Of a DNA stretch of 64,000 nt, positions 38,847 through 64,000 are shown one piece after another; position 1 is the first letter of the stretch, and every line of letters starts with the position of its first letter. The translations under genes were made by a program, and so were the position numbers. The notes beneath the pieces are model-generated. The model searched no databases, was not told the origin of the DNA, and worked only from the letters and a program-made list of their open reading frames with translations. Origin of the DNA: Clavelina lepadiformis (taxonomy: Eukaryota); contig NC_135246.1 of assembly GCF_947623445.1 (NCBI RefSeq), positions 18,964,288 through 19,028,287 on the forward strand, given 5' to 3'.

Positions 38847-40772
38847 AGAAAGTCCCTGTCCGGAAAACCTTGATATTTCGACTTACGTTAGAAAAATCAA
38901 CTTCAAACATAGAATATGGAGTTAATTAACTGAATGAGCTTTCTACTGGAACGATCTTGTATAAATCAAAGGCTTTTAAATCCAGGACGCAAAGTCATTA
39001 TGTCTGTCTCCAAAACAAGTTTGATCTCAATCTCAGCAAATTGCAATGAAGTCAAACAGCATTATTGTTTGTCATTATTATGATTTTGTGTGTATTTTAT
39101 CCCACGGACTTTCGTTTGAAATATTATCAAATAAAAATAATTTTTTAAAATTAGCCATCAGATTCAGTGCGATATTTTGAAATGGAAATACATGCTTTTG
39201 ATGTAGTTTATTATATCACTACTCTCACACTGGTTGTATTTGTACAAAATCTCAGATACCTTACTCATACGTATGTAAATGTGTGTGTAACTGTGTTTAG
39301 TAAGTATATTTGTGCAAGTAGTTTGAAGCTTATACAAAGTTTTTAGCAGTAGTTGTAGTAGCATTGTTATCGTATCCTAGGTGTGATTAAATCGCCTATA
39401 TCTGAGGTGTGATTAAATCGCCTTCCAGACTGTAAACACAGTTCTGGTAAAATGAAGCTCAAGTGTTATCTTATATAATGCCAGATTTAATCTGCTCTTA
39501 TGCACTTGTTCATTGTAGCCTTATTTTTATGCATTTGTTTATGGTGTTTTAATTTCCAAGGTATTGTGTACATTTCCTAAATTTCTTATCCAGGCACTTG
39601 TAAGTTTAAGCTTGATTGTAGTAGGTCTGTATATTTCTGTGTGAAAATTATTTTGAGTTCTCTATCATTGATAATATCACTCAAATAATTAAAATATGCA
39701 GCTTGTATCAATCATGTGAATGTCATTACCAGGTGCGCGCTCATATTACTCTACTATTAAAACACTTTGATGTTTTAAACTACTGGTGGTCTTCAACGTT
39801 TCTTAAACTTAACGAGCATCTGCTTACCGTACCAAATCCCATATGCATGCATTCTCACTATGTGCTTTGCCAGAAAGCAAAGCAGTTTATTTGCAATCTT
39901 CCCTGTAAATTAAATTGTAGCTTTTTATTCGGGGAATTACGTAGTATTTTAAATGGATTGGAATGGCATCCATGCGAAATTTACATACATACTCACTTGG
40001 TAAACTTTGAATTTTAACAATGAATCAAATCAGCTTCATAAGATACTATTTACTACTAGACCAGTTAAAAATAGTTACTACACAGCAAGTTACGCATGAG
40101 CGAGTACGATTTAAATGGTGTTGCTAATTGTTTGGTCAACATTATTATCACTGCTCAAACATTTCTAATGAACAGGAAAGTTAAAAATTTTTGTAAAGTG
40201 ACATCTCTCACCATATTATTTGAACACCTAGACAGGATAACAATCTTTTATATGATTTCCACATTTATAATCTAAAAACAGTTGCACGTAATAATTTCAT
40301 CTACAGACATTTTATCAATCCATTTTATATCAAACAATGATATGTACTATTAAATATACTTGTGACATCATAAAGAAACCTGATAAAAGCTCTAGTGGCA
40401 ATTTTAACATTCCTCAAATGAGTGCAACAGGACATCGTGAAAGAGCAGACAATAGAAATCATACTCTGACTAATTATGACAGAAATGGCGAGAACACAAT
40501 GATTTACTGCATAGCAGTAGCGCCGCAACCAATAAAAAGCTAAAAACGGAAGAAATTGCACAGGTAGACAATTCATTGACAAATTAATTTGCAGATCAGT
40601 GGTAACACATTAACCCAACAACTTTCAGTTCATGGACTAAGTGCCCATCACAATTTTAAAATCAATTTTTCTCATTTTGGAGAGTTTTCTATTGATTTTA
40701 TGAGCAGCTCAGTATTTGTAAAAAATATAAATGAAATGCAAAATGTTAGATTTGACCTTTGAGAAATGATCA

Positions 40773-41991: not shown

Positions 41992-43620
41992 TCAAAAATT
42001 ATCATTTTCTTGAGCAGTGTGGTTCTGGTTTCTTTCCCAAATTTCCACTTCTTTAACCATTTCATCATCAGAGAGTTCATTAAAACTATTTTTTAATCTC
42101 TCCTTGACGGCTTCGGGAAATGGAATGGGATCAGATCTGTAATTCCTGCATTCATAATCATGACATTTCTGATAGCAATACATTGTTTTTAGGTTGGCCA
42201 CGTATAAGATTCCATTGCTTTTATGTTCACGACCAATGTTTCCACAATACCTTGTTCCTGTGATTTCATATGATATGGTTTTGGTGGTTGGGAAATACCT
42301 TTGCATACGCACGAAGGCATCCGAATTAAATTGTTTTATTAGGTCAGTCACAAACGCATGTAGCTCCTTGAATGGTACGTCAGTGTCATTGTCTTCTGGT
42401 ATACATGACTCGTCATACTCAATGTTATGCGATGTTCCACTGACCAATTGGGAATTTTTATAAGGTGAAACATATGCGTTTGATTTTTTATCGTGTTCAG
42501 GCATTTCTAGTATTGTTAAATCATCACGATTAAAAACATTTGTTATAAACGAAGAAAAGAATATAAGTTCATCTCTACATTGAGTGAGCCCACCGTTTAA
42601 CTTCTTGGTTTTGCTTGGGGACATCATGTGATGCATGTGATGTGATGTGTGCATCATGTGATGCATGCAACAAGTTGTTCTGATGTTGACCGGTTCAAAG
42701 GGAAATTGACAATTCTCAGAAAGCTCCAACTCTCGAATTTTTCCTTTTTTACTGGAATGAAATAAACGGAAATTTCGATTGTTTGAATAAACAGATTGAT
42801 CAACGAATAATTGTTTTTCACCACTAGAACTTGTCACCAAAAGGTTGCTCAAGTCATCTGCATGGTCTAAAGAAGTTATCCAATGTTTGGCAATAGCATC
42901 AACATCACTAGATACGTCATTTTTCAGCTTAAGATAAGACAGCAGATCACAACAGATTTTTTTAACAAAGTTTCCAGCTTCCAAATTATTTTTAAAAGCT
43001 GCATTAGGTACATGCCAGATAAGATGTTGACTAAACTTGGTTTCTGTAGTGGAGTCCAATTCTACAACGTTTCGCCTTGAACAATTGACTTTAAATTCAT
43101 TGTACAGACATTTGCAAGTGTATGTGACCCACATTTGTATCATTGACTCTGTGTTTTTTGTCTTGTTCAAAGTCTTATCAAATTCCAGGTCAAAGTAGAG
43201 ATGACACAGAGCTCCTGATTGGATAAGCTCATAAAAATGTCTCTTTCCTTGAGCCATCTGAATGTAATACGACCAGAATTCTTCCAGACTTGCCACAACA
43301 TAACGCCTGGCCCCAGGTCTTGAGTTATCAATTTCGAAAGAAAACACAAAAGCATGTTGGTGCTTCTGAGTTTTTGCATAATCTATAGCATCGCTTTGTT
43401 TGTAAAATAGTTTCCACAATGGCGGTGGCAACCACACATCTGACAATCTTGGTTTGTAGGTCATTTTTACTGGATTCTCCTGATAATCTTTCATCCGCTT
43501 TTCAATATTGCACTGGTGTTTAGTTTTCAACTTTTTTATCATGGCGCCAACACAGAGCTTTCTATAACAAATTTTGCTAACATTAAAACAACAAAAGGTC
43601 CACGATTTCAACATCGTCAT
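41992..43620 (-). CDS. PRIMPOL: DNA-directed primase/polymerase PrimPol, apparently intronless (542 aa)
   Basis: archaeo-eukaryotic primase motifs: motif I CHLYFDLEF (DxE), motif II KFSQHLIWHV (SxH), motif III NFRLFHSSKKGK; UL52-like Zn finger CGNIGREHKSNGILYVANLKTMYCYQKCHDYEC; acidic C-terminal tail; colinear with human PRIMPOL. Confidence 0.85.
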   Translation of the reverse strand: MTMLKSWTFCCFNVSKICYRKLCVGAMIKKLKTKHQCNIEKRMKDYQENPVKMTYKPRLSDVWLPPPLWKLFYKQSDAIDYAKTQKHQHAFVFSFEIDNSRPGARRYVVASLEEFWSYYIQMAQGKRHFYELIQSGALCHLYFDLEFDKTLNKTKNTESMIQMWVTYTCKCLYNEFKVNCSRRNVVELDSTTETKFSQHLIWHVPNAAFKNNLEAGNFVKKICCDLLSYLKLKNDVSSDVDAIAKHWITSLDHADDLSNLLVTSSSGEKQLFVDQSVYSNNRNFRLFHSSKKGKIRELELSENCQFPFEPVNIRTTCCMHHMMHTSHHMHHMMSPSKTKKLNGGLTQCRDELIFFSSFITNVFNRDDLTILEMPEHDKKSNAYVSPYKNSQLVSGTSHNIEYDESCIPEDNDTDVPFKELHAFVTDLIKQFNSDAFVRMQRYFPTTKTISYEITGTRYCGNIGREHKSNGILYVANLKTMYCYQKCHDYECRNYRSDPIPFPEAVKERLKNSFNELSDDEMVKEVEIWERNQNHTAQENDNF

Positions 43621-46513: not shown

Positions 46514-49500
46514 AAATAAAATGCTATTATTGTGATATTATTAACGTTATTTTACTTGTTCATACTCATAACCCAGGGTAACAATCTTTAATAAATTGCA
46601 ACCTTGACTAACTGACCTTTGTTGTCCTCGATTAATCCACTTCTTCCAGAATGTCTTCCTCGAACTCTTCATCGCTGTCTATTTCATAAATCCCAAAATG
46701 TTGTGTTCGATATGCCAAATCTTGTTTTTCTTTGGCATCGTTTTCTTCATGTTCCATTAGACTGTATAATTGTACAAAAGATAACTTCAATGACAAGGTT
46801 GACATTTTCATGCCACTACCAGTCTATGTTTTGGATGCAGACAAATGCTTGCTACTGCATTTAAATCTAATGCTTTATGTCAACTTTTCAAACACTATTT
46901 TGTGCAGTCCGCTTTGTCATTAGGCTAAAATTTTCAATTAAGCATTTGGTTTCAAGGTTACTACATTTTTCTTACATAAATACATGCTGATAGAAACAAG
47001 TATGTCCAGTTATATACAGATATGTATGCTATACATGTTCAAGAACGCACTTATTTAGAAGATGCCCGATTCGATAACCATCTCCTTCATCGGAAAACTG
47101 TAATCGATGATCAAAATTTGGAGCTGCAAATAAATAATCTTAAGTAATCCAACGTCTGATATAAGCTTATTGATATATTCAACTAACATACTTGGACATA
47201 CTGGGACATCTTATATATTCAAAACTTTGTGATCGAATGTCGAACAACTCCGTACAACAATAAGGCATCGGTTCCAACAAAGTTTTTAATTGCAATGGAT
47301 CCAATATTATGAAGCCATAGTAGGGACGAACGTAGCTATAAAACAATGAGCGAGTTAAGAAACCCAGCCGAGACAAGCTATAGTAGACGAAAATAGACGC
47401 AAAGTAGAATATAAAATCCATCAAAAAATGAGAAAAGATTATACATAATACGGTAATGAGCTGGACTTACCTTGAATAAACAAACAAAGTTCCTTCCATT
47501 ATAAATTCCTCCTAAAAAAATTGAAATTTGTTTCAAAAATATAGACGATAGATTAATAACTGCTGGAATGATTACACGGAGAAGCTATTAAAGTAACACC
47601 AGCTCTTTGCAGAAATATTAAGTAGACTGAAACATTTAAAATACAGATAGTGTAATTACCATAAAATGGAAAATATGTAAAAAATTTCAAACAATAAACA
47701 ATATACACAAGCAACATACCGTTTTTGCATTTGAATTGTACAGATAAGCTTCAACTTGAATTGCAGAATCTATCATGTGCGAAATGTTAGAATTATGACG
47801 CCGAAGTATTCTCAAAATAACGTTCTTTTCCATTTCAGAAAACATCATGAAAATTAATTTGTACGGAAATGCAGAAAACCTGGTATTTTAATCGCGAGCA
47901 ATCTTATAACTTATATATACACTACAAAAAAGATTTTTTTTAAAGTAAAACACATTCCTTAGACAAACTTACTTGTCATCTGCTGTCATTCTACAAGACA
48001 ACTGGTTTTATAGGGCAGTCATCTTATTAAAACAAAGGGATTGTCTAACTCTAACAGAAAAAATTTCAAGCAAAAAAAGAATTTGAAACCATGGTCTCAA
48101 AAGTAATCAACGATGAAATGAACGCAGGTTCAAAGTTGTGAATAGGTAAATATTGCACAATCATGGTTAGCACCTGTTGCCCTGAGACAATGAGCTTTCT
48201 TGGTTTACACACTCACACGATTTTTTTGACTTAAAATAAAATAAAATGAAACGTTTAGAAACCCAGCAGCGTTTTAGTTTGAAATCAGGAGGAAATTAGG
48301 TGTGAGTTGGATAACAACATGCAACGATTGGCATCACCAGATAAGTCACTGAACGTAAGTTCGAATTGGAGAAGATGAACATGAAGTGTTTGGTTCTTAC
48401 ACAACCGGCTGGGAAACAATGTGAGAGATATAACCAGACTGAGCAATATAACTTGTTCGCATGTGAAACTTAAATATGCGAAAAATATTCTTTTTTCAAA
48501 ACGTAACTCAAACGGTTTAACCCTTTTTTGCCCTGGTTTGAGTCCAATGGATCCAGATGATTTTCAGATTCTGGTAATTATTGATAACACTATTTAGCAT
48601 ATCGACCACTACGATATAACGATTGCAAATTGCACGTTAACCGCGCTATATCAGTACACTAAAGCAAAAAGTAAAACGTCAAACCCATACTTACCCCGCA
48701 TGAAATGAATAATTTGAAATGTGCCTCGCAAACAAGCAAGCTATGTATTATGTTCAGTTCTAAGCGTTACTAACAGAAATATGTTAAAATACACTAAAGT
48801 GTTGAATTACAAAGCATACATTTCGTCACAATAGCCAGTGCATTTTGTCATGTACTTTTAATCGTTGTTAGACAGTGTATTTGATTATTTTATTACAACA
48901 CCTTTGGCTTACACGTTATGAAATTTGTATATTATATGTACTAGAGTAACTAGACTATTTAGGGAGAACCACTTGTCCATGCTCCCGGCACAAACTCTAT
49001 TTTTAGGAGCCAGAAACGATGTTATGTTTTCGATTTTTCGTTCTTTACATTTTCTTGTTTGCGACTCCTTATCGGTTACAACCATTACAATATAAAGTTC
49101 TGGGAAATCTCCAGACAACATTTTTTCAAAACAATTGCAATAGTCAAAACAAAATGGTCTTATCGTCAAACATGGCAGGTTGCTTGTTGTTATCGTTGTC
49201 AAGTGATGTGAGCTGATTCTAACCCCCAACTTTCAAAAAAGGCGATATGGGCATTGCAGTTGTTAATAAGAAGCTGTTTATTGTTTAATCGAGTTGTAAA
49301 AGTAAACTTAAATCATTTCCATGTTTCAAAAACGTATCTGTTGAGAAGAAATATGTCACAAACTTATTATGACGTTAGTACAAGTTGGGTGAGTATTCTG
49401 GCTTCGACGAAGTTCAGGAGTAAAACAATGTGCGTGATAACTAGTCGAATATTTTGGGATCATAAAAGTTTTTACCTCTTTATTCTTTATTTGCTAAAAC

Positions 49501-52500
49501 CGTGGCAATATTAAGTGTTGTGAGTCACTGACAGCATTGTTATAACACGATGACTCTAGTCGAGATGGACTGATGGTGATCAAATAGAGCAGGTTGCTTG
49601 TTGATCTGGTTGTCAACCATTGAACGAAATATTTCCATGATCTACTTCCAAAAAATCAAGTTCCACTTTGCGTGCGTTATTTCAATATTGTGCTCGATGA
49701 AGTGTCAAACTTTACGTGGGGGTTGTTTTAATAAAGGCAGAGGAAAGCAGTGTTACGAAATTTACCGTACATTAAAATACGAGAATACGTTTCGATTGAT
49801 TTTAAGAAACTTCTGAGGCATAGAAGCGCAAAATTCTTGGAATATCTACACCAATTTTGGGCGGTTTCCCTCATCGCAATCAAACGTCGCTACTGAGTAT
49901 AATGAATGTTTAGATTTTTGAGTACGATGAGTGCATATGTGACGTGTAGTTTTAAGTTTTAACAGTTTTAAGTTTTAACAATTTCAGCCTAACGTTACGT
50001 TAGGCTGAAATTGTTTGATTTAATTGTGGTGAGCAATCGTCATAAAATCAGAAACAGAAATAATTGAAACTCTATGAGAGGCACAACTGAAGCGAACATA
50101 AAAACAAGGATGTACCCAATCATAAACACGTCCGTTCGGTTGCTCACTCAAACGTGGAACGAATTGTAATTTACTTAACATGCACACCAAACACAAGAAT
50201 AGTTAATTAACACGCTCAAAACGACGCGATTGCATGATGTAGTACTAACTTGATTTATTTGAGGTTGCAGGTTTTCGCAAAAACACACCATCGATGCAAA
50301 CATAAGAAACCATCCAAAAGCATAATGCGTGATCACAATCAATGCGCTAATATGACATCTATGAGTTAGTGGTGGCAGTGAATAGAAATATGTGATATCT
50401 AAACATCATGTTTAAAAATTAAAAGCGATGTGATACTGGAAGGAAATATTAAAATAATGTTTGGTAATGCTGCACTATTGTGAGTGTGACAGTGTGTACT
50501 TTTTTTAGTCACACACAAATAAAACATTTAGAGTTTGATATATTTAAAAATCTAAAAACCACTGGATATATCTTCCCGATATAAGCAGGTTGTCTAGCTT
50601 TCATACGAATTGAATAATAGTGAAAATAGTTGTGAAATATATACTTATACATACTTCCTATACATGCGGTTACTTATGTAAATGCTTGTCGCTAACTGCA
50701 AAAATGGTTCCCATCATTTATTAAGTGTCACATTGATATTTTACAAGATTTTGAAAATATCTCGACTCTATGCTTACAATTACATTGTGCTGGAAACAAT
50801 AAAACTTTTTGGAGCCCAAACGTTATTCCACCACACGTTTTGCCGTCGTTAGGCGAAGTTAAACTAAAAGATAGCTTATATCTACCAGCTAGATACAGGA
50901 AACTTTCAAAGGCAGCAAGAGACTAAATAATTGTTTTTTATACCGTATGATATTTCGAATTTTGTACAAATACAGCAGAAAATTTATAAAACATAGTTTA
51001 TTTATTGTTATTTTCGATATAAAACATGATTCGAAAAAACAAACATATATACGTGTACAAAATACGAAAAAAATACAAATCACACTTAATATAAAAGGCG
51101 ACATTTTTAATCAGTTGATACACAATAATACAACACTGAACTTGGAAATCCCAAAATATAAATATAAAACAATTGAATTCAAAAAAAATCCAGAAAATTT
51201 AATCCCATAATTTAATAATTTAATTTAGTCCTTCAATGGGAGTCGCTTCACGGTCCATTCTATCTATTTGCAAAGACTGTAAAATAATCGCAAAATCATT
51301 GCTCAGTAATAATCGCTTTTAATTTATATTACCATCAAATCAGCGTTTGTTCATAATGTTACCGCTTGGTGTTTCATAGTAATATGTATAAGTTTATGTG
51401 CATCTTTATAATGAAGCTAATACTCACTCGTTTAGAAGATATCCCATGCGTCTGCAATCGACCATGTTTTCAAATTTTAAGCCGAAACCCATTGCTGAAA
51501 CATATAAAACATAAACTCCAATATATTGTCCAATGCATTCTCAACTTAGGCTACTACTACGGTATAATCGATCATATTGAATGCACTTACATTTAGTATT
51601 TCTGGTCACCAGGAACGTTGAATATTCATGAAATTCCAAACCAGGATAGATAGTTTGGCTCCAATTAATTATCCAATCTGTCTTGGTTCATGATGGTGAA
51701 ACCAAATGTAGGGCAATGCATAATGTCAAAACTTGAAAGAATTTATGTCAAAAATTGTGGTAAAAATTGCTGTATTATGTAAAAAGCTAAACAAACAGAA
51801 CAAGATTAAAGAACAGACAAAAAACACTTTTAATATTTCACAACCTACAACAACACATAACTGAAAAGTCAAATTAGAAAATGCAAAACAATGTGCTCTA
51901 CATCCTTAAAGTACTCGGGATAAACTACTGCATAATGCGAAATATTGATTAAACGGAACAAGACTTAAAAAATACTAAACAATAAGGTAATTTAATAACT
52001 TTGGCTTACCGTTTATGAACAAATATCGTTCCGTCCATTTCAATGCTTTTCTTGAAAAAAACGTTTATTTTAATGTAAGATTCCATTGTTGTAGAACTAT
52101 TTCATACATCTTATAGGGAATCTTTTTTGCTCGGCAGCAAAGGAGGGCATAAAACTTATTAAAAAGTTGTAACTTTGTGATCTCAATCATCCAAGCTACC
52201 AAAACGAATCGGACAAAATTGCAGCATAATTTAGCCTTTGCAGAAAGATTAAAGTTAAACTATAGTTAGAATGATTATTTAAATTTATACCAACAACATA
52301 CCCATTCTTTGCTTTCATCATTGAAAATATAAACCGCAACTGGATTTGCAGAATCAAGGATGTCCGAAACGCTTTGATCTTCGCGAAGAAGTGCTTTCAA
52401 ATTAACTTCTACTTCACCTTCGAACGCTATTATGTACCAAGCTGCTATTTAACACTGACCTATAAAGAACAAGTCAATTTTGAGTAATAATGCAATTGTA

Positions 52501-54025
52501 TGAATTAAAGAGAATACAAAAATTTTTTATGTATTTATGGGCAAATGCGAATTCAAGTAAGATGGTTGACTAAGCTATCATAGAGTATCATCTCATCAGA
52601 CAACACTACACTACTAACAGGAACCAAAACTTGACTGATCGATCTACTGTAATTCTGAAGGGGTCATGTCCCAATTCAAAGAGATAGGCTTTTCAATGCA
52701 AAGTACATTAAATCAAGAAGCTACCAACGCAAAACTACATCATAAACCTACCCTGAATTTTGGCTTGCAACAAGACCTAGGTTATGTCTGTCTACAGTCT
52801 TAATTTGGACAAAATCCATGTACTCAGTTTTCTATAACAATTGCCTAAACTTTACAACAAGTTTTTAGCTTAACATTTTATGACAAATACTCCAAAAAAA
52901 CAAAAATTCAAACCCACACAAAATTTACAACTTAGCCTAGACCTGGAACCAGCTGTCGTCAAAGCAACGACGAACTACTCCACATCGACGTCACATGCGC
53001 ATTGGACCGGAAAATTTTTACTTTTTTTAATATGACGCATTGAGTGCGACACGGTCACAATCACTGTGTTGCCGGCACAAAATTGTCGTTTTATTGGGAA
53101 GTGACCCCTTAAACGTGAAGAAATTCATAAATTTTAGTTTTACTTATGACTATATCTATATATAGATATCTATATATATTATATAAGGTAAGTGATTAGG
53201 ATTAGGATTAGGTGATTAGTAGGGCAAGTTTTTGCAACTTTTGCAACTTTTTTTACAGCTTCCGGCAGCTTCCTAAATACTCAGGATTTATGTGAGTCTA
53301 GCCAGCTGGTGGTCTAGACACCAATCAGCTGGTGGTCTAGACGGTCAAATGGTCATCAAACGGTTGTTGGCTCGTCGCTCTGCGGCTCGCTGGTTTGAAC
53401 CTGCAGCTTGTCTGTCGACGTTCTCCGGTTTTTCCACTGTGCTATGAGTTCCCCCCACCCACCCTATGCTTTCTGCGCATCTTGACTTTATTGCTTTAGG
53501 ACTTTGGGCGTTTTTGCAATATTATTGTGCACTTTAACGCAGTCGGACTTACAATCTCGCAAGAAAAGCAGGAGGTGGGTGGACAAGGTTTGGAACCTGC
53601 AAACTCTGGGAGGATATTCGGCAACTTACAACCAGAGCAGTATTAACCGGTGTTGATATCTTGTTATTATGCAATACCTAAATTATTCCAACATCAGTAG
53701 TTGTTACGGCTGTTAAACTTTAGTTACTGTACATTGCTTTCGTCAACCAGAATATGTTGCAAATTACCCGCTCTGCCTTCAGTCAGGCCAATGGCGCAGC
53801 ATCCTGATGCACATTAGGTGGAGAGTAAAGTTTAGTGAATAACAATCCAAAGGTTCCCGGTTCAAACCCAGGACCTTGCAAGTCCGTTTCGGCGTATAAA
53901 CTTGAATTCCAAATGTTTTCATTGGTTTTTTTAAAAAATACACCACAACTGTGCTTAATGTTCAATGCAAATAGATAAAATCGCACTTTTCGCAAATCAC
54001 TTATGGAAGCGTGATTCCAATTCCG

Positions 54026-54107
54026 CGTTGTCGGCAGGATTCGAACCTAAGCGGGCAGAGCCCAGCAGATTTCTAGTCTGTCGCCTTAACCACTCGGCCA
54101 CGACAAC
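54026..54107 (-). tRNA. tRNA-Ser (anticodon AGA)
   Basis: 82 nt; 7-bp acceptor stem GTTGTCG/CGACAAC; A box TGGCCGAGTGG; long variable arm; B box GGTTCGAATCC; anticodon loop CTAGAAA; anticodon-stem last pair mismatched. Confidence 0.85.
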
Positions 54108-54185
54108 TGTGCTTAATGCATAGATGAAATAGTTAAAATACCACATTTCCGAATATCCATATGAAATTGCAAAAGTAATATCGGC

Positions 54186-54267
54186 GTTGTCGGCAGGATT
54201 CGAACCTACGCGGGCTGGGCCCAACAGATTTCGAGTCTGTCGCCTTAACCACTCGGCCACGACAACT
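54186..54267 (-). tRNA. tRNA-Ser (anticodon CGA)
   Basis: as above; anticodon loop CTCGAAA; clean cloverleaf; T4 run downstream. Confidence 0.9.
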
Positions 54268-54343
54268 GTGCTTAATGCATAGATGAAATAGTTAAAATAC
54301 CACATTTCCGAATATCCATATGAAATTGCAAAAGTAATATCGG

Positions 54344-54425
54344 CGTTGTCGGCAGGATTCGAACCTACGCGGCCTGGGCCCAACAGATTTCGAGACTGTC
54401 GCCTTAACCACTCGGCCACGACAAC
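54344..54425 (-). tRNA. tRNA-Ser (anticodon CGA) variant with a T:T mismatch in the anticodon stem and an altered variable arm; possible pseudogene
   Basis: anticodon stem ACAGT / TCTGT. Confidence 0.6.
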
Positions 54426-54502
54426 TGTGCTTAATGCATAGATGAAATAGATAAAATCGCACTTTTCCGAATATCCATATGAAATTGCAAAAGTAATATC
54501 GG

Positions 54503-54584
54503 CGTTGTCGGCAGGATTCGAACCTACGCGGGCTGGGCCCAACAGATTTCGAGTCTGTCGCCTTAACCACTCGGCCACGACAAC
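54503..54584 (-). tRNA. tRNA-Ser (anticodon CGA)
   Basis: identical to 54186-54267. Confidence 0.9.
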
Positions 54585-54661
54585 TGTGCTTAATGCATAG
54601 ATGAAATAGTTAAAATACCACATTTCCGAATATCCATATGAAATTGCAAAAGTAATATCGG

Positions 54662-54743
54662 CGTTGTCGGCAGGATTCGAACCTACGCGGGCAGGGCCCA
54701 ACAGATTTCGAGTCTGTCGCCTTAACCACTCGGCCACGACAAC
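54662..54743 (-). tRNA. tRNA-Ser (anticodon CGA), variable-arm variant
   Basis: same backbone; variable arm GGGCCCTGCCCGC. Confidence 0.85.
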
Positions 54744-54820
54744 TGTGCTTAATGCATAGATGAAATAGATAAAATCGCACTTTTCCGAATATCCATATGA
54801 AATTGCAAAAGTAATATCGG

Positions 54821-54902
54821 CGTTGTCGGCAGGATTCGAACCTACGCGGGCATAGCCTAACAGATTTCAAGTCTGTCGCCTTAACCACTCGGCCACGACA
54901 AC
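54821..54902 (-). tRNA. tRNA-Ser (anticodon TGA)
   Basis: anticodon loop CTTGAAA; variable arm TAGGCTATGCCCGC. Confidence 0.85.
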
Positions 54903-55015
54903 TGTGCTTAATGTGAAATGCAAATAGATAAAATGGCACTTTTCTCGAATCACTAGATAGATTCCACCATGTCGGTGTTTCCGGAATCTTCTCCTGACTT
55001 TCAAATCTGACAAGA

Positions 55016-55146
55016 TGAAAATGTAGCTAGCGTAGTCTAGATAAAAATCTAGCTAGTGTAGTCTAGATGAAAATGAAGCTAGCGTAGTCTAGATGAAAAT
55101 CAAGCTAGCGTAGTCTAGATGAAAATCAAGCAAGCGTAGTCTAGAT
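55016..55146. repeat. 26-bp minisatellite (AGCTAGCGTAGTCTAGATGAAAATCA)n, about 5 copies; the same block recurs in every unit and is the target of the MITE-A insertions
   Basis: direct tandem copies with point variants. Confidence 0.8.
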
Positions 55147-55484
55147 CAGGGCTTCTCAAACTATGGGTCGCGACCCCAAATGGGGTCGCGTAATGAAATT
55201 TTGGGGTCGTAATGAAATAGTTTAATTTAGTCTAGTGCCGGTAGGTTGTAGTCTTGCCATGATGTCAATCTGAAGTGGCCAAGTTTTTCAAAAAATCACA
55301 TGGAAATGACTGCATTTTAGGGCCGTTATGTAAGCGGTCCTTGATGACTTTACAACCAGCCCGGCCTGTGCACATGGATTAACATGGATTTAATGTCATT
55401 AACGTGAATGTCCCCATAATGGGGTCGCATAGAAATATCTTTTCCAAAATGGGGTCGCAGAACAAAAAAGTTTGAGAAGCCCTG
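55147..55484. mobile_element. hAT-like MITE-A (338 bp), copy 1, with a perfect 8-bp TSD GTCTAGAT
   Basis: TIR CAGGGCTTCTCAAACT … AGTTTGAGAAGCCCTG (5' YARNG-type start); identical 8-mers at 55139-55146 and 55485-55492; internal ggggtcgcg repeats; units 2 and 4 have the uninterrupted empty site. Confidence 0.8.
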
Positions 55485-55728
55485 GTCTAGATGAAAATCA
55501 AGCTAGCGTAGTCTAGATGAAAATCAAGCTGATTTCGAGACCTAGCTACGCCTACGTCTCTGTAGTGTATTAACTATAAGCTAGTTTCAACTAAATTTTA
55601 AGTATTAAAGTAAACTTCTGTTATTTTCTTAAGGGGTCATGTCCCAATTCAAAGAGATAGGCTTTTCAATGCAAAGTACATTAAATCAAGAAGCTACCAA
55701 CGCAAAACTACATCATAAACACCCGATT

Positions 55729-56088
55729 CGTCTGCTTTCCGCCCATTGAAATGGGTGGAAATGCGGTATTATTTTCCCATTAGAATGCCAGGAAGTATGC
55801 CTTTCTTACCCTAGAGTAAAATATATGCATTTGGAATGGGGAGATGTTTACTTCGGCAGAAATATAGTTTGTGGGAAACCCCATTGCTGAAAGCAGGTCC
55901 ATTTTAATGGGCGGAAAAATAGACGAATGGGGTTCACAAACCATATTTGTGCCAAAGTAAAATTCTCCCCATTCCAAAGGCATATATCTTACTCTAGGGT
56001 AAGAAAGGCATACTTCCTGCCATTACAATGGGAAAAATTTCCCGTACTCTGGACCATTTTAATGGGCGGAAAGTAGACGAATGGGGTG
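55729..56088. mobile_element. MITE-B (~360 bp) with ~35-bp TIRs, present only in unit 2; TSD TCATAAA(C), 7-8 bp
   Basis: TIR CACCCGATTCGTCTGCTTTCCGCCCATTGAAATGG vs reverse complement CACCCCATTCGTCTACTTTCCGCCCATTAAAATGG; interrupts the sequence catcataaac|ctaccctgaat, which is contiguous in units 1, 3, 4 and 5. Confidence 0.75.
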
Positions 56089-57351
56089 TCATAAACCTAC
56101 CCTGAATTTTGGCTTGCAACAAGACCTAGGTTATGTCTGTCTACAGTCTTAATTTGGACAAAATCCTTGTACTCAGTTTTCTATAACAATTGCCTAAACT
56201 TTACAACAAGTTTTTAGCTTAACATTTTATGACAAATACTCCAAAAAAACAAAAATTCAAACCCACACAAAATTTACAACTTAGCCTAGACCTGGAACCA
56301 GCTGTCGTCAAAGCAACGACGAACTACTCCACATCGACGTCACATGCGCATTGGACCGGAAAATTTTTACTTTTTTTAATATGACGCATTGAGTGCGACA
56401 CGGTCACAATCACTGTGTTGCCGGCACAAAATTGTCGTTTTATTGGGAAGTGACCCCTTAAACGTGAAGAAATTCATAAATTTTAGTTTTACTTATGACT
56501 ATATCTATATATAGATATCTATATATATTATATAAGGTAAGTGATTAGGATTAGGATTAGGTGATTAGTAGGGCAAGTTTTTGCAACTTTTGCAACTTTT
56601 TTTACAGCTTCCGGCAGCTTCCTAAATACTCAGGATTTATGTGAGTCTAGCCAGCTGGTGGTCTAGACGGTCAAATGGTCATCAAACGGTTGTTGGCTCG
56701 TCGCTCTGCGGCTCGCTGGTTTGAACCTGCAGCTTGTCTGTCGACGTTCTCCGGTTTTTCCACTGTGCTATGAGTTCCCCCCACCCACCCTATGCTTTCT
56801 GCGCATCTTGACTTTATTGCTTTAGGACTTTGGGCGTTTTTGCAATATTATTGTGCACTTTAACGCAGTCGGACTTACAATCTCGCAAGAAAAGCAGGAG
56901 GTGGGTGGACAAGGTTTGGAACCTGCAAACTCTGGGAGGATATTCGGCAACTTACAACCAGAGCAGTATTAACCGGTGTTGATATCTTGTTATTATGCAA
57001 TACCTAAATTATTCCAACATCAGTAGTTGTTACGGCTGTTAAACTTTAGTTACTGTACATTGCTTTCGTCAACCAGAATATGTTGCAAATTACCCGCTCT
57101 GCCTTCAGTCAGGCCAATGGCGCAGCATCCTGATGCACATTAGGTGGAGAGTAAAGTTTAGTGAATAACAATCCAAAGGTTCCCGGTTCAAACCCAGGAC
57201 CTTGCAAGTCCGTTTCGGCGTATAAACTTGAATTCCAAATGTTTTCATTGGTTTTTTAAAAAAATACACCACAACTGTGCTTAATGTTCAATGCAAATAG
57301 ATAAAATCGCACTTTTCGCAAATCACTTATGGAAGCGTGATTCCAATTCCG

Positions 57352-57433
57352 CGTTGTCGGCAGGATTCGAACCTAAGCGGGCAGAGCCCAGCAGATTTCT
57401 AGTCTGTCGCCTTAACCACTCGGCCACGACAAC
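57352..57433 (-). tRNA. tRNA-Ser (anticodon AGA)
   Basis: copy of 54026-54107. Confidence 0.85.
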
Positions 57434-57510
57434 TGTGCTTAATGCATAGATGAAATAGTTAAAATACCACATTTCCGAATATCCATATGAAATTGCAAAA
57501 GTAATATCGG

Positions 57511-57592
57511 CGTTGTCGGCAGGATTCGAACCTACGCGGGCTGGGCCCAACAGATTTCGAGTCTGTCGCCTTAACCACTCGGCCACGACAAC
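57511..57592 (-). tRNA. tRNA-Ser (anticodon CGA)
   Basis: canonical copy. Confidence 0.9.
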
Positions 57593-57669
57593 TGTGCTTA
57601 ATGCATAGATGAAATAGTTAAAATGGCACATTTCCGAATATCCATATGAAATTGCAAAAGTAATATCGG

Positions 57670-57751
57670 CGTTGTCGGCAGGATTCGAACCTACGCGGGC
57701 AGGGCCCAACAGATTTCGAGTCTGTCGCCTTAACCACTCGGCCACGACAAC
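57670..57751 (-). tRNA. tRNA-Ser (anticodon CGA)
   Basis: variable-arm variant. Confidence 0.85.
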
Positions 57752-57828
57752 TGTGCTTAATGCATAGATGAAATAGATAAAATCGCACTTTTCCGAATAT
57801 CCATATGAAATTGCAAAAGTAATATCGG

Positions 57829-57910
57829 CGTTGTCGGCAGGATTCGAACCTACGCGGGCATAGCCTAACAGATTTCAAGTCTGTCGCCTTAACCACTCGG
57901 CCACGACAAC
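57829..57910 (-). tRNA. tRNA-Ser (anticodon TGA)
   Basis: copy of 54821-54902. Confidence 0.85.
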
Positions 57911-59660
57911 TGTGCTTAATGTGAAATGCAAATAGATAAAATGGCACTTTTCTCGAATCACTAGATAGATTCCACCATGTCGGTGTTTCCGGAATCTTCT
58001 CCTGACTTTCAAATCTGACAAGATGAAAATGTAGCTAGCGTAGTCTAGATAAAAATCTAGCTAGTGTAGTCTAGATGAAAATGAAGCTAGCGTAGTCTAG
58101 ATGAAAATCAAGCTAGCGTAGTCTAGATGAAAATCAAGCAAGCGTAGTCTAGATGAAAATCAAGCTAGCGTAGTCTAGATGAAAATCAAGCTGATTTCGA
58201 GACCTAGCTACGCCTACGTCTCTGTAGTGTATTAACTATAAGCTAGTTTCAACTAAATTTTAAGTATTAAAGTAAACTTCTGTTATTTTCTTAAGGGGTC
58301 ATGTCCCAATTCAAAGAGATAGGCTTTTCAATGCAAAGTACATTAAATCAAGAAGCTACCAACGCAAAACTACATCATAAACCTACCCTGAATTTTGGCT
58401 TGCAACAAGACCTAGGTTATGTCTGTCTACAGTCTTAATTTGGACAAAATCCTTGTACTCAGTTTTCTATAACAATTGCCTAAACTTTACAACAAGTTTT
58501 TAGCTTAACATTTTATGACAAATACTCCAAAAAAACAAAAATTCAAACCCACACAAAATTTACAACTTAGCCTAGACCTGGAACCAGCTGTCGTCAAAGC
58601 AACGACGAACTACTCCACATCGACGTCACATGCGCATTGGACCGGAAAATTTTTACTTTTTTTAATATGACGCATTGAGTGCGACACGGTCACAATCACT
58701 GTGTTGCCGGCACAAAATTGTCGTTTTATTGGGAAGTGACCCCTTAAACGTGAAGAAATTCATAAATTTTAGTTTTACTTATGACTATATCTATATATAG
58801 ATATCTATATATATTATATAAGGTAAGTGATTAGGATTAGGATTAGGTGATTAGTAGGGCAAGTTTTTGCAACTTTTGCAACTTTTTTTACAGCTTCCGG
58901 CAGCTTCCTAAATACTCAGGATTTATGTGAGTCTAGCCAGCTGGTGGTCTAGACACCAATCAGCTGGTGGTCTAGACGGTCAAATGGTCATCAAACGGTT
59001 GTTGGCTCGTCGCTCTGCGGCTCGCTGGTTTGAACCTGCAGCTTGTCTGTCGACGTTCTCCGGTTTTTCCACTGTGCTATGAGTTCCCCCCACCCACCCT
59101 ATGCTTTCTGCGCATCTTGACTTTATTGCTTTAGGACTTTGGGCGTTTTTGCAATATTATTGTGCACTTTAACGCAGTCGGACTTACAATCTCGCAAGAA
59201 AAGCAGGAGGTGGGTGGACAAGGTTTGGAACCTGCAAACTCTGGGAGGATATTCGGCAACTTACAACCAGAGCAGTATTAACCGGTGTTGATATCTTGTT
59301 ATTATGCAATACCTAAATTATTCCAACATCAGTAGTTGTTACGGCTGTTAAACTTTAGTTACTGTACATTGCTTTCGTCAACCAAAATATGTTGCAAATT
59401 ACCCGCTCTGCCTTCAGTCAGGCCAATGGCGCAGCATCCTGATGCACATTAGGTGGAGAGTAAAGTTTAGTGAATAACAATCCAAAGGTTCCCGGTTCAA
59501 ACCCAGGACCTTGCAAGTCCGTTTCGGCGTATAAACTTGAATTCCAAATGTTTTCATTGGTTTTTTTAAAAAATACACCACAACTGTGCTTAATGTTCAA
59601 TGCAAATAGATAAAATCGCACTTTTCGCAAATCACTTATGGAAGCGTGATTCCAATTCCG

Positions 59661-59742
59661 CGTTGTCGGCAGGATTCGAACCTAAGCGGGCAGAGCCCAG
59701 CAGATTTCTAGTCTGTCGCCTTAACCACTCGGCCACGACAAC
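59661..59742 (-). tRNA. tRNA-Ser (anticodon AGA)
   Basis: array copy. Confidence 0.85.
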
Positions 59743-59819
59743 TGTGCTTAATGCATAGATGAAATAGTTAAAATACCACATTTCCGAATATCCATATGAA
59801 ATTGCAAAAGTAATATCGG

Positions 59820-59901
59820 CGTTGTCGGCAGGATTCGAACCTACGCGGGCTGGGCCCAACAGATTTCGAGTCTGTCGCCTTAACCACTCGGCCACGACAA
59901 C
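59820..59901 (-). tRNA. tRNA-Ser (anticodon CGA)
   Basis: array copy. Confidence 0.9.
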
Positions 59902-59978
59902 TGTGCTTAATGCATAGATGAAATAGATAAAATCGCACTTTTCCGAATATCCATATGAAATTGCAAAAGTAATATCGG

Positions 59979-60060
59979 CGTTGTCGGCAGGATTCGAACC
60001 TACGCGGGCATAGCCTAACAGATTTCAAGTCTGTCGCCTTAACCACTCGGCCACGACAAC
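59979..60060 (-). tRNA. tRNA-Ser (anticodon TGA)
   Basis: array copy. Confidence 0.85.
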
Positions 60061-60304
60061 TGTGCTTAATGTGAAATGCAAATAGATAAAATGGCACTTT
60101 TCTCGAATCACTAGATAGATTCCACCATGTCGGTGTTTCCGGAATCTTCTCCTGACTTTCAAATCTGACAAGATGAAAATGTAGCTAGCGTAGTCTAGAT
60201 AAAAATCTAGCTAGTGTAGTCTAGATGAAAATGAAGCTAGCGTAGTCTAGATGAAAATCAAGCTAGCGTAGTCTAGATGAAAATCAAGCAAGCGTAGTCT
60301 AGAT

Positions 60305-60642
60305 CAGGGCTTCTCAAACTATGGGTCGCGACCCCAAATGGGGTCGCGTAATGAAATTTTGGGGTCGTAATGAAATAGTTTAATTTAGTCTAGTGCCGGT
60401 AGGTTGTAGTCTTGCCATGATGTCAATCTGAAGTGGCCAAGTTTTTCAAAAAATCACATGGAAATGACTGCATTTTAGGGCCGTTATGTAAGCGGTCCTT
60501 GATGACTTTACAACCAGCCCGGCCTGTGCACATGGATTAACATGGATTTAATGTCATTAACGTGAATGTCCCCATAATGGGGTCGCATAGAAATATCTTT
60601 TCCAAAATGGGGTCGCAGAACAAAAAAGTTTGAGAAGCCCTG
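60305..60642. mobile_element. hAT-like MITE-A, copy 2, same insertion site and TSD as copy 1
   Basis: identical TIRs and GTCTAGAT duplication. Confidence 0.8.
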
Positions 60643-62156
60643 GTCTAGATGAAAATCAAGCTAGCGTAGTCTAGATGAAAATCAAGCTGATTTCGAGACC
60701 TAGCTACGCCTACGTCTCTGTAGTGTATTAACTATAAGCTAGTTTCAACTAAATTTTAAGTATTAAAGTAAACTTCTGTTATTTTCTTAAGGGGTCATGT
60801 CCCAATTCAAAGAGATAGGCTTTTCAATGCAAAGTACATTAAATCAAGAAGCTACCAACGCAAAACTACATCATAAACCTACCCTGAATTTTGGCTTGCA
60901 ACAAGACCTAGGTTATGTCTGTCTACAGTCTTAATTTGGACAAAATCCTTGTACTCAGTTTTCTATAACAATTGCCTAAACTTTACAACAAGTTTTTAGC
61001 TTAACATTTTATGACAAATACTCCAAAAAAACAAAAATTCAAACCCACACAAAATTTACAACTTAGCCTAGACCTGGAACCAGCTGTCGTCAAAGCAACG
61101 ACGAACTACTCCACATCGACGTCACATGCGCATTGGACCGGAAAATTTTTACTTTTTTTAATATGACGCATTGAGTGCGACACGGTCACAATCACTGTGT
61201 TGCCGGCACAAAATTGTCGTTTTATTGGGAAGTGACCCCTTAAACGTGAAGAAATTCATAAATTTTAGTTTTACTTATGACTATATCTATATATAGATAT
61301 CTATATATATTATATAAGGTAAGTGATTAGGATTAGGATTAGGTGATTAGTAGGGCAAGTTTTTGCAACTTTTGCAACTTTTTTTACAGCTTCCGGCAGC
61401 TTCCTAAATACTCAGGATTTATGTGAGTCTAGCCAGCTGGTGGTCTAGACACCAATCAGCTGGTGGTCTAGACGGTCAAATGGTCATCAAACGGTTGTTG
61501 GCTCGTCGCTCTGCGGCTCGCTGGTTTGAACCTGCAGCTTGTCTGTCGACGTTCTCCGGTTTTTCCACTGTGCTATGAGTTCCCCCCACCCACCCTATGC
61601 TTTCTGCGCATCTTGACTTTATTGCTTTAGGACTTTGGGCGTTTTTGCAATATTATTGTGCACTTTAACGCAGTCGGACTTACAATCTCGCAAGAAAAGC
61701 AGGAGGTGGGTGGACAAGGTTTGGAACCTGCAAACTCTGGGAGGATATTCGGCAACTTACAACCAGAGCAGTATTAACCGGTGTTGATATCTTGTTATTA
61801 TGCAATACCTAAATTATTCCAACATCAGTAGTTGTTACGGCTGTTAAACTTTAGTTACTGTACATTGCTTTCGTCAACCAGAATATGTTGCAAATTACCC
61901 GCTCTGCCTTCAGTCAGGCCAATGGCGCAGCATCCTGATGCACATTAGGTGGAGAGTAAAGTTTAGTGAATAACAATCCAAAGGTTCCCGGTTCAAACCC
62001 AGGACCTTGCAAGTCCGTTTCGGCGTATAAACTTGAATTCCAAATGTTTTCATTGGTTTTTTTAAAAAATACACCACAACTGTGCTTAATGTTCAATGCA
62101 AATAGATAAAATCGCACTTTTCGCAAATCACTTATGGAAGCGTGATTCCAATTCCG

Positions 62157-62238
62157 CGTTGTCGGCAGGATTCGAACCTAAGCGGGCAGAGCCCAGCAGA
62201 TTTCTAGTCTGTCGCCTTAACCACTCGGCCACGACAAC
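62157..62238 (-). tRNA. tRNA-Ser (anticodon AGA)
   Basis: array copy. Confidence 0.85.
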
Positions 62239-62315
62239 TGTGCTTAATGCATAGATGAAATAGTTAAAATACCACATTTCCGAATATCCATATGAAATTG
62301 CAAAAGTAATATCGG

Positions 62316-62397
62316 CGTTGTCGGCAGGATTCGAACCTACGCGGGCTGGGCCCAACAGATTTCGAGTCTGTCGCCTTAACCACTCGGCCACGACAAC
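62316..62397 (-). tRNA. tRNA-Ser (anticodon CGA)
   Basis: array copy. Confidence 0.9.
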
Positions 62398-62474
62398 TGT
62401 GCTTAATGCATAGATGAAATAGTTAAAATGGCACATTTCCGAATATCCATATGAAATTGCAAAAGTAATATCGG

Positions 62475-62556
62475 CGTTGTCGGCAGGATTCGAACCTACG
62501 CGGGCAGGGCCCAACAGATTTCGAGTCTGTCGCCTTAACCACTCGGCCACGACAAC
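62475..62556 (-). tRNA. tRNA-Ser (anticodon CGA)
   Basis: array copy, variable-arm variant. Confidence 0.85.
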
Positions 62557-62633
62557 TGTGCTTAATGCATAGATGAAATAGATAAAATCGCACTTTTCCG
62601 AATATCCATATGAAATTGCAAAAGTAATATCGG

Positions 62634-62715
62634 CGTTGTCGGCAGGATTCGAACCTACGCGGGCATAGCCTAACAGATTTCAAGTCTGTCGCCTTAACCA
62701 CTCGGCCACGACAAC
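62634..62715 (-). tRNA. tRNA-Ser (anticodon TGA)
   Basis: array copy. Confidence 0.85.
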
Positions 62716-64000
62716 TGTGCTTAATGTGAAATGCAAATAGATAAAATGGCACTTTTCTCGAATCACTAGATAGATTCCACCATGTCGGTGTTTCCGGAAT
62801 CTTCTCCTGACTTTCAAATCTGACAAGATGAAAATGTAGCTAGCGTAGTCTAGATAAAAATCTAGCTAGTGTAGTCTAGATGAAAATGAAGCTAGCGTAG
62901 TCTAGATGAAAATCAAGCTAGCGTAGTCTAGATGAAAATCAAGCAAGCGTAGTCTAGATGAAAATCAAGCTAGCGTAGTCTAGATGAAAATCAAGCTGAT
63001 TTCGAGACCTAGCTACGCCTACGTCTCTGTAGTGTATTAACTATAAGCTAGTTTCAACTAAATTTTAAGTATTAAAGTAAACTTCTGTTATTTTCTTAAG
63101 GGGTCATGTCCCAATTCAAAGAGATAGGCTTTTCAATGCAAAGTACATTAAATCAAGAAGCTACCAACGCAAAACTACATCATAAACCTACCCTGAATTT
63201 TGGCTTGCAACAAGACCTAGGTTATGTCTGTCTACAGTCTTAATTTGGACAAAATCCTTGTACTCAGTTTTCTATAACAATTGCCTAAACTTTACAACAA
63301 GTTTTTAGCTTAACATTTTATGACAAATACTCCAAAAAAACAAAAATTCAAACCCACACAAAATTTACAACTTAGCCTAGACCTGGAACCAGCTGTCGTC
63401 AAAGCAACGACGAACTACTCCACATCGACGTCACATGCGCATTGGACCGGAAAATTTTTACTTTTTTTAATATGACGCATTGAGTGCGACACGGTCACAA
63501 TCACTGTGTTGCCGGCACAAAATTGTCGTTTTATTGGGAAGTGACCCCTTAAACGTGAAGAAATTCATAAATTTTAGTTTTACTTATGACTATATCTATA
63601 TATAGATATCTATATATATTATATAAGGTAAGTGATTAGGATTAGGATTAGGTGATTAGTAGGGCAAGTTTTTGCAACTTTTGCAACTTTTTTTACAGCT
63701 TCCGGCAGCTTCCTAAATACTCAGGATTTATGTGAGTCTAGCCAGCTGGTGGTCTAGACACCAATCAGCTGGTGGTCTAGACGGTCAAATGGTCATCAAA
63801 CGGTTGTTGGCTCGTCGCTCTGCGGCTCGCTGGTTTGAACCTGCAGCTTGTCTGTCGACGTTCTCCGGTTTTTCCACTGTGCTATGAGTTCCCCCCACCC
63901 ACCCTATGCTTTCTGCGCATCTTGACTTTATTGCTTTAGGACTTTGGGCGTTTTTGCAATATTATTGTGCACTTTAACGCAGTCGGACTTACAATCTCGC

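Follow-up and report, generated by a model that had tools for sequence, protein, structure and literature searches.

The right-hand part of a 64,000-nucleotide stretch of the Clavelina lepadiformis genome (NCBI RefSeq assembly GCF_947623445.1, contig NC_135246.1, forward-strand positions 18,964,288 to 19,028,287; hereafter the window, within which all coordinates are counted) carries a hierarchical tandem array that we read, with a probability of roughly 0.85, as genuine nuclear tRNA-Ser genes of the UCN codon box, amplified by unequal crossing-over and showing satellite-like dynamics. ARAGORN and Rfam RF00005, run over the full 64 kb, found 17 tRNA-Ser genes, all on the minus strand, at about 54026-62715. 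A preliminary description had proposed 17 genes of 82 nucleotides (nt) in sub-arrays of 6, 4, 3 and 4 with a 159-base-pair (bp) period, and this layout was borne out by both gene finders and by Tandem Repeats Finder (TRF), which recovered the 159-bp period with scores of 764-1631. ARAGORN called all 17 as tRNA-Ser. Every copy exceeded the RF00005 gathering score of 29 bits, as eukaryotic cytosolic class II tRNA-Ser cloverleaves, and at 51.5-64.3 bits none is low-scoring (UGA genes 64.3, eight CGA genes 62.9, one CGA gene 58.6 and AGA genes 51.5 bits; E-values of 1e-8 to 1e-11, far beyond chance). Read in the direction of transcription, each unit runs UGA, one to four CGA, AGA; the order AGA-CGA-UGA given previously holds in plus-strand coordinates only and not for transcription. 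The genes are listed below by sub-array, in transcription order.

54821-54902, minus strand: tRNA-Ser(UGA), first transcribed gene of sub-array 1 (ARAGORN; Rfam, 64.3 bits).
54662-54743, minus strand: tRNA-Ser(CGA) variant b, variable loop CCU, all stems paired, sub-array 1 (ARAGORN; Rfam, 62.9 bits; fold).
54503-54584, minus strand: tRNA-Ser(CGA) variant a, variable loop CCA, all stems paired, sub-array 1 (ARAGORN, Rfam, fold).
54344-54425, minus strand: tRNA-Ser(CGA) variant c, probably damaged, sub-array 1 (Rfam, 58.6 bits; fold).
54185-54266, minus strand: tRNA-Ser(CGA) variant a, sub-array 1 (ARAGORN, Rfam).
54026-54107, minus strand: tRNA-Ser(AGA), last gene of sub-array 1 (ARAGORN; Rfam, 51.5 bits; fold).
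57829-57910, minus strand: tRNA-Ser(UGA), sub-array 2 (ARAGORN, Rfam).
57670-57751, minus strand: tRNA-Ser(CGA) variant b, sub-array 2 (ARAGORN, Rfam).
57511-57592, minus strand: tRNA-Ser(CGA) variant a, sub-array 2 (ARAGORN, Rfam).
57352-57433, minus strand: tRNA-Ser(AGA), sub-array 2 (ARAGORN, Rfam).
59979-60060, minus strand: tRNA-Ser(UGA), sub-array 3 (ARAGORN, Rfam).
59820-59901, minus strand: tRNA-Ser(CGA) variant a, sub-array 3 (ARAGORN, Rfam).
59661-59742, minus strand: tRNA-Ser(AGA), sub-array 3 (ARAGORN, Rfam).
62634-62715, minus strand: tRNA-Ser(UGA), sub-array 4 (ARAGORN, Rfam).
62475-62556, minus strand: tRNA-Ser(CGA) variant b, sub-array 4 (ARAGORN, Rfam).
62316-62397, minus strand: tRNA-Ser(CGA) variant a, sub-array 4 (ARAGORN, Rfam).
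62157-62238, minus strand: tRNA-Ser(AGA), sub-array 4 (ARAGORN, Rfam).

The one-backbone family with three anticodons envisaged at the outset stands, with five distinct 82-nt sequences rather than three: CGA-a (five copies), CGA-b (three), CGA-c (one), UGA (four) and AGA (four). CGA-b differs from CGA-a by a single base in the variable loop; CGA-c is mismatched at U31:U39 and also in the variable arm; the UGA gene carries C34U and four variable-arm changes; and the AGA gene carries C34A, U43C, two variable-loop changes and G49U. Apart from these point changes, the acceptor, D, anticodon and T arms are common to all 17 genes. The anticodon loop C32-U33-N-G-A-A37-A38 is kept in every window copy, and each of the five variants ends its templated sequence in G73 and has a variable region of 14 nt that includes a stem of 3-4 bp; a long variable arm and G73 are identity elements for SerRS (review PMC9976931).

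Signals for RNA polymerase III (Pol III) were defined as an A box (TRGCNNAGTGG), a B box (GGTTCGANNCC) and an oligo-T terminator, and were found in the window copies. The A box TGGCCGAGTGG and the perfect B box GGTTCGAATCC are present in 17 of 17, and a TTTT terminator lies at +11 in all 13 CGA and UGA copies; in the four AGA copies the first T4 run comes at +46. The minimum-free-energy (MFE) fold of CGA-a and CGA-b is the cloverleaf itself, at -29 to -30 kcal/mol. In the AGA genes the cloverleaf is less stable than in the CGA copies by about 4.7 kcal/mol because of two mismatches found in all four, A27:C43, where the anticodon stem is farthest from its loop, and U49:C65, at the terminal pair of the T stem; the A-C mismatch pointed out earlier is thus real, lies far from the loop and is accompanied by a second. 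CGA-c favours a non-cloverleaf fold (cloverleaf -23.3 versus MFE -32.3 kcal/mol) and is probably damaged.

At the next level, the same-strand, head-to-tail 159-bp repeats are nested in tandem units of 2286-3349 bp. The figure of about 2.3 kb repeated 4.4 times is a fair approximation of the base unit; the actual lengths are 3349, 2286, 2496 and 2309 bp plus a partial fifth unit, with an arbitrary anchor point. The array begins at 52653/52654, in agreement with the left boundary first proposed, as judged from the repeat families and from the boundary sequence at an allelic locus (L119, described below), and GC content rises from about 36% outside the array to about 41% inside.

52654-64000, minus strand: whole higher-order tRNA-Ser array, continuing beyond the right window edge (repeat families, unit alignment, boundary common with allele L119).
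52740-56088, minus strand: unit 1, 3349 bp, six tRNA genes, with insertions 1 and 2, which resemble miniature inverted-repeat transposable elements (MITEs) (repeat families, unit alignment).
56089-58374, minus strand: unit 2, 2286 bp, four tRNA genes, no insertions, without a 23-bp segment (unit alignment).
58375-60870, minus strand: unit 3, 2496 bp, three tRNA genes, MITE-like insertion 1 (unit alignment).
60871-63179, minus strand: unit 4, 2309 bp, four tRNA genes, no insertions (unit alignment).
63180-64000, minus strand: start portion of a fifth unit, ending at the window edge (repeat families, unit alignment).
53933-53993, minus strand: truncated 159-bp repeat closing sub-array 1; also 57259-57319, 59568-59628 and 62064-62124 (repeat comparison).
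55013-55146, minus strand: 26-bp minisatellite AGATGAAAATCAAGCTAGCGTAGTCT, present in 5-7 copies immediately upstream of every UGA gene; also 58021-58192, 60171-60304 and 62826-62997 (TRF).
55146-55485, unstranded: MITE-like insertion 1, about 340 bp, within the minisatellite; identical copy at 60304-60643 in unit 3 (unit alignment, inverted repeats).
55719-56089, unstranded: MITE-like foldback insertion 2 (unit alignment, inverted repeats).

The four complete units are about 99.8% identical, with five substitution columns in their alignment. Their lengths differ by 318 bp (two tRNA repeats, extra in unit 1), by 159 bp (one repeat, absent in unit 3), by a 346-bp insertion in units 1 and 3, by a 376-bp foldback insertion in unit 1 only and by a 23-bp indel. 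Insertion 1, which has 23-nt terminal inverted repeats CAGGGCTTCTCAAACT, splits the minisatellite in units 1 and 3, leaving one extra copy at 55491-55516 and 60649-60674; its alternation, present in units 1 and 3 and absent from units 2 and 4, may point to a larger period of two units. Insertion 2 is limited to unit 1 and consists of two 155-nt arms, 85% complementary, flanked by a TTTATGA duplication. Both may be mobile, to judge from the terminal inverted repeats, the flanking duplications and their presence or absence between units and alleles; no further copies of either were found in about 230 kb of compared sequence. Each 2.3-kb unit contains about 1.7 kb of spacer unrelated to the tRNA cassette. 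A spacer built of degenerate tRNA repeats was considered and rejected: the sole match is the truncated repeat after each AGA gene, made up of an upstream-flank copy, the first 9 nt of the tRNA (GTTGTGGTG) and a T7 run. A permissive Rfam scan of 52400-57400 found no other RNA family in the spacer, only sub-threshold hairpin matches from the foldback insertion; the unit has no long open reading frame (ORF) beyond spurious frames through the tRNAs; and a scan for bacterial promoters and terminators, a method inapplicable to a eukaryote, returned nothing.

Direct evidence for ongoing change in repeat number came from a second assembly, GCA_961645235.1, in which we reached the allelic locus L119 via a DCP1-like protein. 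The two assemblies are 99.4% identical over 21 kb in the APEX1 region, and the array boundary sequence in L119 is identical to that of the window. Beside this identical boundary the first unit holds four genes in L119 (UGA, CGA-b, CGA-a, AGA) and six in the window. The next L119 unit follows after 2309 bp and also has four genes; neither insertion is present. CGA-c, which in the window sits within the 318 bp of extra repeat exclusive to unit 1, has no counterpart there. Repeat number is therefore changing in whole 159-bp steps, as had been deduced from the differences between units; unequal crossing-over is the recombination mechanism that this comparison suggests.

To place the array in its genomic context, we drew on an accidental ORF that runs through the CGA genes. 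A protein search with it matched about 20 Clavelina lepadiformis models annotated as 'unnamed protein product', on at least 6 contigs of GCA_961645235.1, and led to the following loci.

L001: a single UGA-CGA-AGA trio, on the same contig as the window at a distance of 540 kb.
L002: 47 copies.
L003: 31 copies with mixed anticodons, including one GGA on the opposite strand.
L004: 55 copies in units of about 3 kb.
L005 and L008: 95 and about 101 copies, on one contig, with starts 46 kb apart in a region of at least 67 kb.
L006: two inverted cassettes.

The 214 kb sampled hold 359 family copies, with anticodons CGA (314, 87%), AGA (23), UGA (18), CAA (3) and GGA (1); in the window the CGA share is 53%. 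There are 136 distinct sequences among the 359. All 24 stem pairs are intact in 23 copies (6%), eight of which lie in the window, and 251 have an exact B box; Rfam scores at the loci outside the window span 29.6-67.1 bits. The cassette order UGA-CGA-AGA recurs at L001, L003 and L006, and spacer homology is common to the window, L004 and L005. Many loci and a high copy number are features of satellite DNA; a lack of constraint is seen in L002 and L004, where tRNA-body diversity (0.049-0.050) matches that of the spacer (0.044-0.056) and stems are no better conserved than loops, and is not clear in L005, L008 or the window.

Several side observations concern these loci. The GGA copy (L003:11481-11562, minus strand, 61.4 bits) is a tRNA-Ser gene with G34, which is unusual in eukaryotes, where UCU and UCC are normally decoded by A34 edited to I34. 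A tRNA-Met(CAU) gene lies at L002:17064-17135 on the minus strand, 1.3 kb past the end of the 47-copy array and near a FANCL gene. The Clavelina protein models P0121-P0132, P0136, P0137, P0143 and P0175 are translated tRNA-Ser arrays and hence annotation artefacts, as is P0133 from Syngnathus scovelli (LOC125994133) and possibly P0191 from Magallana gigas. These array-derived models share the repeated motif VVVAEWLRRQTRNLLG...GSNPADN, and some have faint, spurious Pfam matches (DUF6116, Tuberin and others).

Anticodon shifting on one backbone, the other main claim of the preliminary description, is upheld by the window, where the UGA, CGA and AGA genes share body and flanks, and by independent shifts elsewhere in the family. 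Outside nt 34, a UGA copy in L002 matches a CGA neighbour exactly; in L005, 1-2 substitutions separate AGA lineages from CGA copies of the same array; and an AGA copy in L003 is two substitutions from a CGA copy. In L004, a CAA anticodon (a Leu anticodon, reading UUG) sits on a Ser body with the long variable arm and G73, two substitutions from CGA and scoring 58.5 bits; unit duplication has carried it to three copies (L004:1057-1138, 4152-4233 and 18902-18983). Judged from these sequences, the anticodon has changed several times independently within the family. The shifts CGA to UGA and CGA to CAA correspond to both of the transitions open to the CpG, which may be their cause. Older shifts are marked by diagnostic substitutions: the 'Type I' AGA marks T43C, C49T, A51T and G58T are common to the window, L001, L003 and L006, and the 'Type I' UGA marks to the window and L001, so the UGA-CGA-AGA cassette predates the spread of the family.

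These data fit a model in which each 159-bp repeat would be a self-contained Pol III unit, in which an 82-nt class II tRNA carries A and B boxes internally, is preceded by a conserved T/A-rich flank and, where the anticodon is CGA or UGA, is followed by TTTT 11 nt downstream. The UGA-(CGA)n-AGA cassette and its spacer together form the 2.3-kb unit, itself repeated in tandem, and copy number would shift at both levels by unequal crossing-over or replication slippage. Anticodon differences are point substitutions at nt 34 on a shared body, with the cassette older than the family's spread and further shifts, all from CGA, still arising. The window locus is then a young, well-preserved member of a CGA-dominated and largely decaying family. 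On this model the window genes are real and probably transcribable, and their transcripts would be serylated and would decode UCN codons. The proposal that the array supplies isoacceptors is compatible with its predicted promoter and terminator signals and its intact cloverleaf, the AGA gene being structurally the weakest.

The most serious alternative is that the array is a non-functional, tRNA-derived satellite, its copies silent relics and its anticodon variation neutral noise. Much of the family resembles such a satellite: 94% of copies have at least one stem mismatch, variants are numerous and B boxes often imperfect, body and spacer are about equally diverse in L002 and L004, CAA and GGA anticodons occur, the shifts from CGA to UGA and to CAA could both be products of CpG transition, and the same pattern appears on an unrelated animal contig (L009, below). 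The window copies argue otherwise, since 16 of 17 keep the A and B boxes, the terminator and a 51-64-bit cloverleaf, at the top of the family's range, and the CGA-a and CGA-b folds are cloverleaves. Internal Pol III promoters, which generally make such genes transcription-competent, also tell against silence. On balance we regard wholesale loss of function as a distinctly minority possibility, if one to be taken seriously.

A second alternative holds that selection favours many tRNA-Ser genes, with an anticodon mix matched to UCN demand. Eight of the nine window CGA copies have all stems paired and are among the best preserved in the family, window stems vary less (0.016) than unpaired sites (0.057), and the three UCN anticodons stand in a fixed order in every unit and recur in that order at three other loci. 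Against such tuning, UCG makes up only 16 of 180 Ser codons (9%) in three window ORFs, a small sample, to set beside the CGA shares of 53% and 87%, and the AGA gene, which when read as IGA would be expected to carry most UCU and UCC decoding, is the structurally weakest copy. With units about 99.8% identical, low stem diversity may merely reflect youth; moreover, copy number varies between the two assemblies, and there are large arrays without excess stem conservation. We consider dosage tuning unlikely. Because the family comprises hundreds of copies, is 87% CGA and contains many decaying members, its amplification is better described as satellite-like, and its size looks to be set by such amplification and decay, not by codon demand.

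We next considered whether the 2.3-kb cassette is, or rides on, a mobile element that has carried it to many loci. A solo, near-complete and circularly permuted unit at L001, inverted twin cassettes at L006 and the spacer homology among the window, L004 and L005 would all suit that history. The unit, however, has no long ORF, no terminal repeats were found bounding it, and the homologous segment does not end at the same points in the window and in L001. The same data could come from segmental duplication or from excised circles that re-inserted. Mobility of the whole cassette is accordingly an explanation to which we attach little weight.

Over-expansion or mis-joining of repeats during assembly deserves mention, near-identical 2.3-kb units being hard to assemble and 100% identical to one another over hundreds of bases, yet it is very improbable given that the units are individually marked by tRNA number, the two insertions, the 23-bp indel and the five substitutions, that the boundary recurs in an independent assembly together with two or more units built to this plan, and that the family occurs on at least 6 contigs. 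Pseudo-tRNAs spread by retroposition, in the manner of the tRNA-derived short interspersed nuclear elements (SINEs) that are common in animals, can be dismissed with similar assurance: the copies are full-length, high-scoring cloverleaves in a strict head-to-tail 159-bp period with a shared upstream flank, lack A-rich or SINE-body tails in the window, and are separated by spacer free of tRNA-derived sequence apart from the truncated closing repeat.

Some points weigh against the interpretation that we prefer, that of genuine genes amplified in a satellite-like manner. Some or all copies could be silent. Whether the AGA copies serve as the genome's working tRNA-Ser(AGA) is uncertain, given two stem-end mismatches, a weaker predicted cloverleaf and a distant terminator. 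Diversity of the tRNA body falls to about half that of the spacer in L005 and L008, so that constraint or gene conversion is possible in part of the family. The family census is a sample, reached via mis-annotated gene models and counted by a Hamming scan of 214 kb on at least six contigs, and the comparison with codon usage draws on three ORFs. Finally, the oldest shifts could have run in either direction, with any of the three anticodons ancestral to the cassette.

We compared the Clavelina array with known systems. On chromosome 1 of Arabidopsis thaliana, 27 tandem Ser-Tyr-Tyr tRNA units have been described and modelled by unequal crossing-over (Kane, Freeling & Lyons 2010, PMC2886086). Both are tandem multi-gene tRNA cassettes, that of Arabidopsis showing concerted evolution and neutral copy-number drift between close relatives; the Arabidopsis cassette combines two amino-acid identities at a single locus, whereas Clavelina has three isoacceptors on one body, a nested 159-bp level and multiple loci. 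Among the isoacceptor shifts of one survey, 39 of 44 were at the first anticodon base, and co-varying sites clustered in the variable region and the 27:43 neighbourhood (Rogers & Griffiths-Jones 2014, PMC3923123). The Clavelina genes likewise share body and flanks and differ at nt 34, with accompanying changes in the variable arm and at position 43, but the published shifts lie between syntenic orthologues of related species, whereas those in Clavelina lie among tandem paralogues and are recurrent, at 0-2 substitutions. In Entamoeba, almost all tRNA genes belong to 25 array types that occupy more than 10% of the genome (Tawari et al. 2008, PMC2652664). There too, tandem tRNA units are combined with short tandem repeats, between genes in Entamoeba and, as the 26-bp minisatellite, upstream of the sub-arrays in Clavelina; unlike Entamoeba, Clavelina is an animal in which only tRNA-Ser was seen arrayed.

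Among animals, tRNA arrays are known from Hydractinia and Nematostella (PMC11067881, which calls such arrays unusual), from the human 1q23.3 variable number tandem repeat, whose 7.3-kb, CTCF-binding unit varies in copy number between alleles (PMC4041453), and from zebrafish and Xenopus clusters (PMC2888827). They share with Clavelina an even spacing, a common strand and near-identical tRNA genes; Hydractinia spacers, unlike those of Clavelina, are hundreds to thousands of nucleotides long, and none of these arrays is described as a single-backbone, three-anticodon cassette. Our literature searches brought up no nuclear tRNA array described from tunicates, and the genome-resource paper for Clavelina in Genome Biology and Evolution (GBE; PMC10950049) makes no mention of tRNA.

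Sequence archives yielded independent parallels. One animal contig (L007, ENA ERZ26222911 ctg474464) consists entirely of tRNA-Ser repeats, with 35 copies in 6 kb at a period of about 170 bp, and its main AGA form (14 copies) and its UGA form (7 copies) differ at nt 34 only. Another (L009, ENA ERZ25074608 ctg175048, 182x coverage) has 90 tRNA-Ser copies in 20 kb at a 189-bp period, the Ser body bearing CGA (62), UGA (16), CGG (Pro; 6), CAA (Leu; 4) and GAA (Phe; 2) anticodons; by its sequence it is an independent, CGA-dominated, decaying array. The pipefish 'protein' P0133 translates an array with a period of about 159 bp. All three resemble Clavelina: tRNA-Ser genes repeat in tandem every 160-190 bp or so, and a single body bears mixed anticodons. 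Their tRNA backbones and spacers differ from those of Clavelina, so that their origin was independent. The exact Clavelina backbone had no matches in a metagenome scan. A looser core (D-arm and anticodon stem) recovered 108 mostly single-copy eukaryotic tRNA-Ser genes (AGA 65, UGA 38, CGA 5), with no arrays among them.

The sequence to the left of the array carries protein-coding genes, of which the nearest are a tandem pair of DCP1-like mRNA-decapping paralogues.

51598-52409, minus strand: DCP1-like gene copy A, adjoining the array's left boundary (protein comparison).
About 47266-47848, minus strand: second DCP1-like copy, a tandem paralogue (protein comparison).

Copy A has ATA where the related protein P0208 has its Met start, and its frame is broken in exon 3; in this haplotype it is probably a pseudogene. 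With an identity of only about 84-91%, and with no gene called at the corresponding position of L119, P0208 is probably a further paralogue elsewhere. The intronless APEX1 ORF (22653-23717) is 100% identical to a Clavelina lepadiformis protein, its next best matches being from other ascidians. Upstream of it lie direct repeats of about 1.8 kb and about 93% identity (15431-17246 versus 19296-21100; also 13336-14927 versus 17261-18571), which came up as secondary BLAST hits in the comparison of the two assemblies. A multi-exon gene model spanning 24300-39400 (2228 aa in GCA_961645235.1), with BRCT, PARP, VIT and VWA domains, looks PARP4/vault-PARP-like, and a 672-aa ORF (35416-37434) falls within its span. 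It is followed by a PrimPol-like gene with a Herpes_UL52 domain (41992-43620), whose ORF has no exact match on record.

The Clavelina array is not a new kind of genetic element, tandem tRNA arrays and isoacceptor anticodon shifts both being known already, but the locus offers an unusually clean view of how a tRNA family changes, with three isoacceptors on one body and shifts at 0-2 substitutions. It also flags about 20 spurious Clavelina protein models and at least one pipefish model as translated tRNA arrays, and it shows that the number of tRNA genes in such genomes is no measure of decoding capacity. We raise, tentatively and as a broader scenario that we think rather unlikely, that in this compact chordate genome of about 210 Mb a single tRNA-Ser gene has grown into a satellite-like family spread over multiple loci, with many hundreds of copies competent for Pol III transcription, polymorphic between individuals and still yielding anticodon mutants, CAA among them. 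The Ser-body CAA copies are candidate natural mistranslating tRNAs: were that scenario true and the copies expressed, they would insert serine at UUG codons, and the family would act as a lasting natural reservoir of new isoacceptors and of low-level mistranslation.

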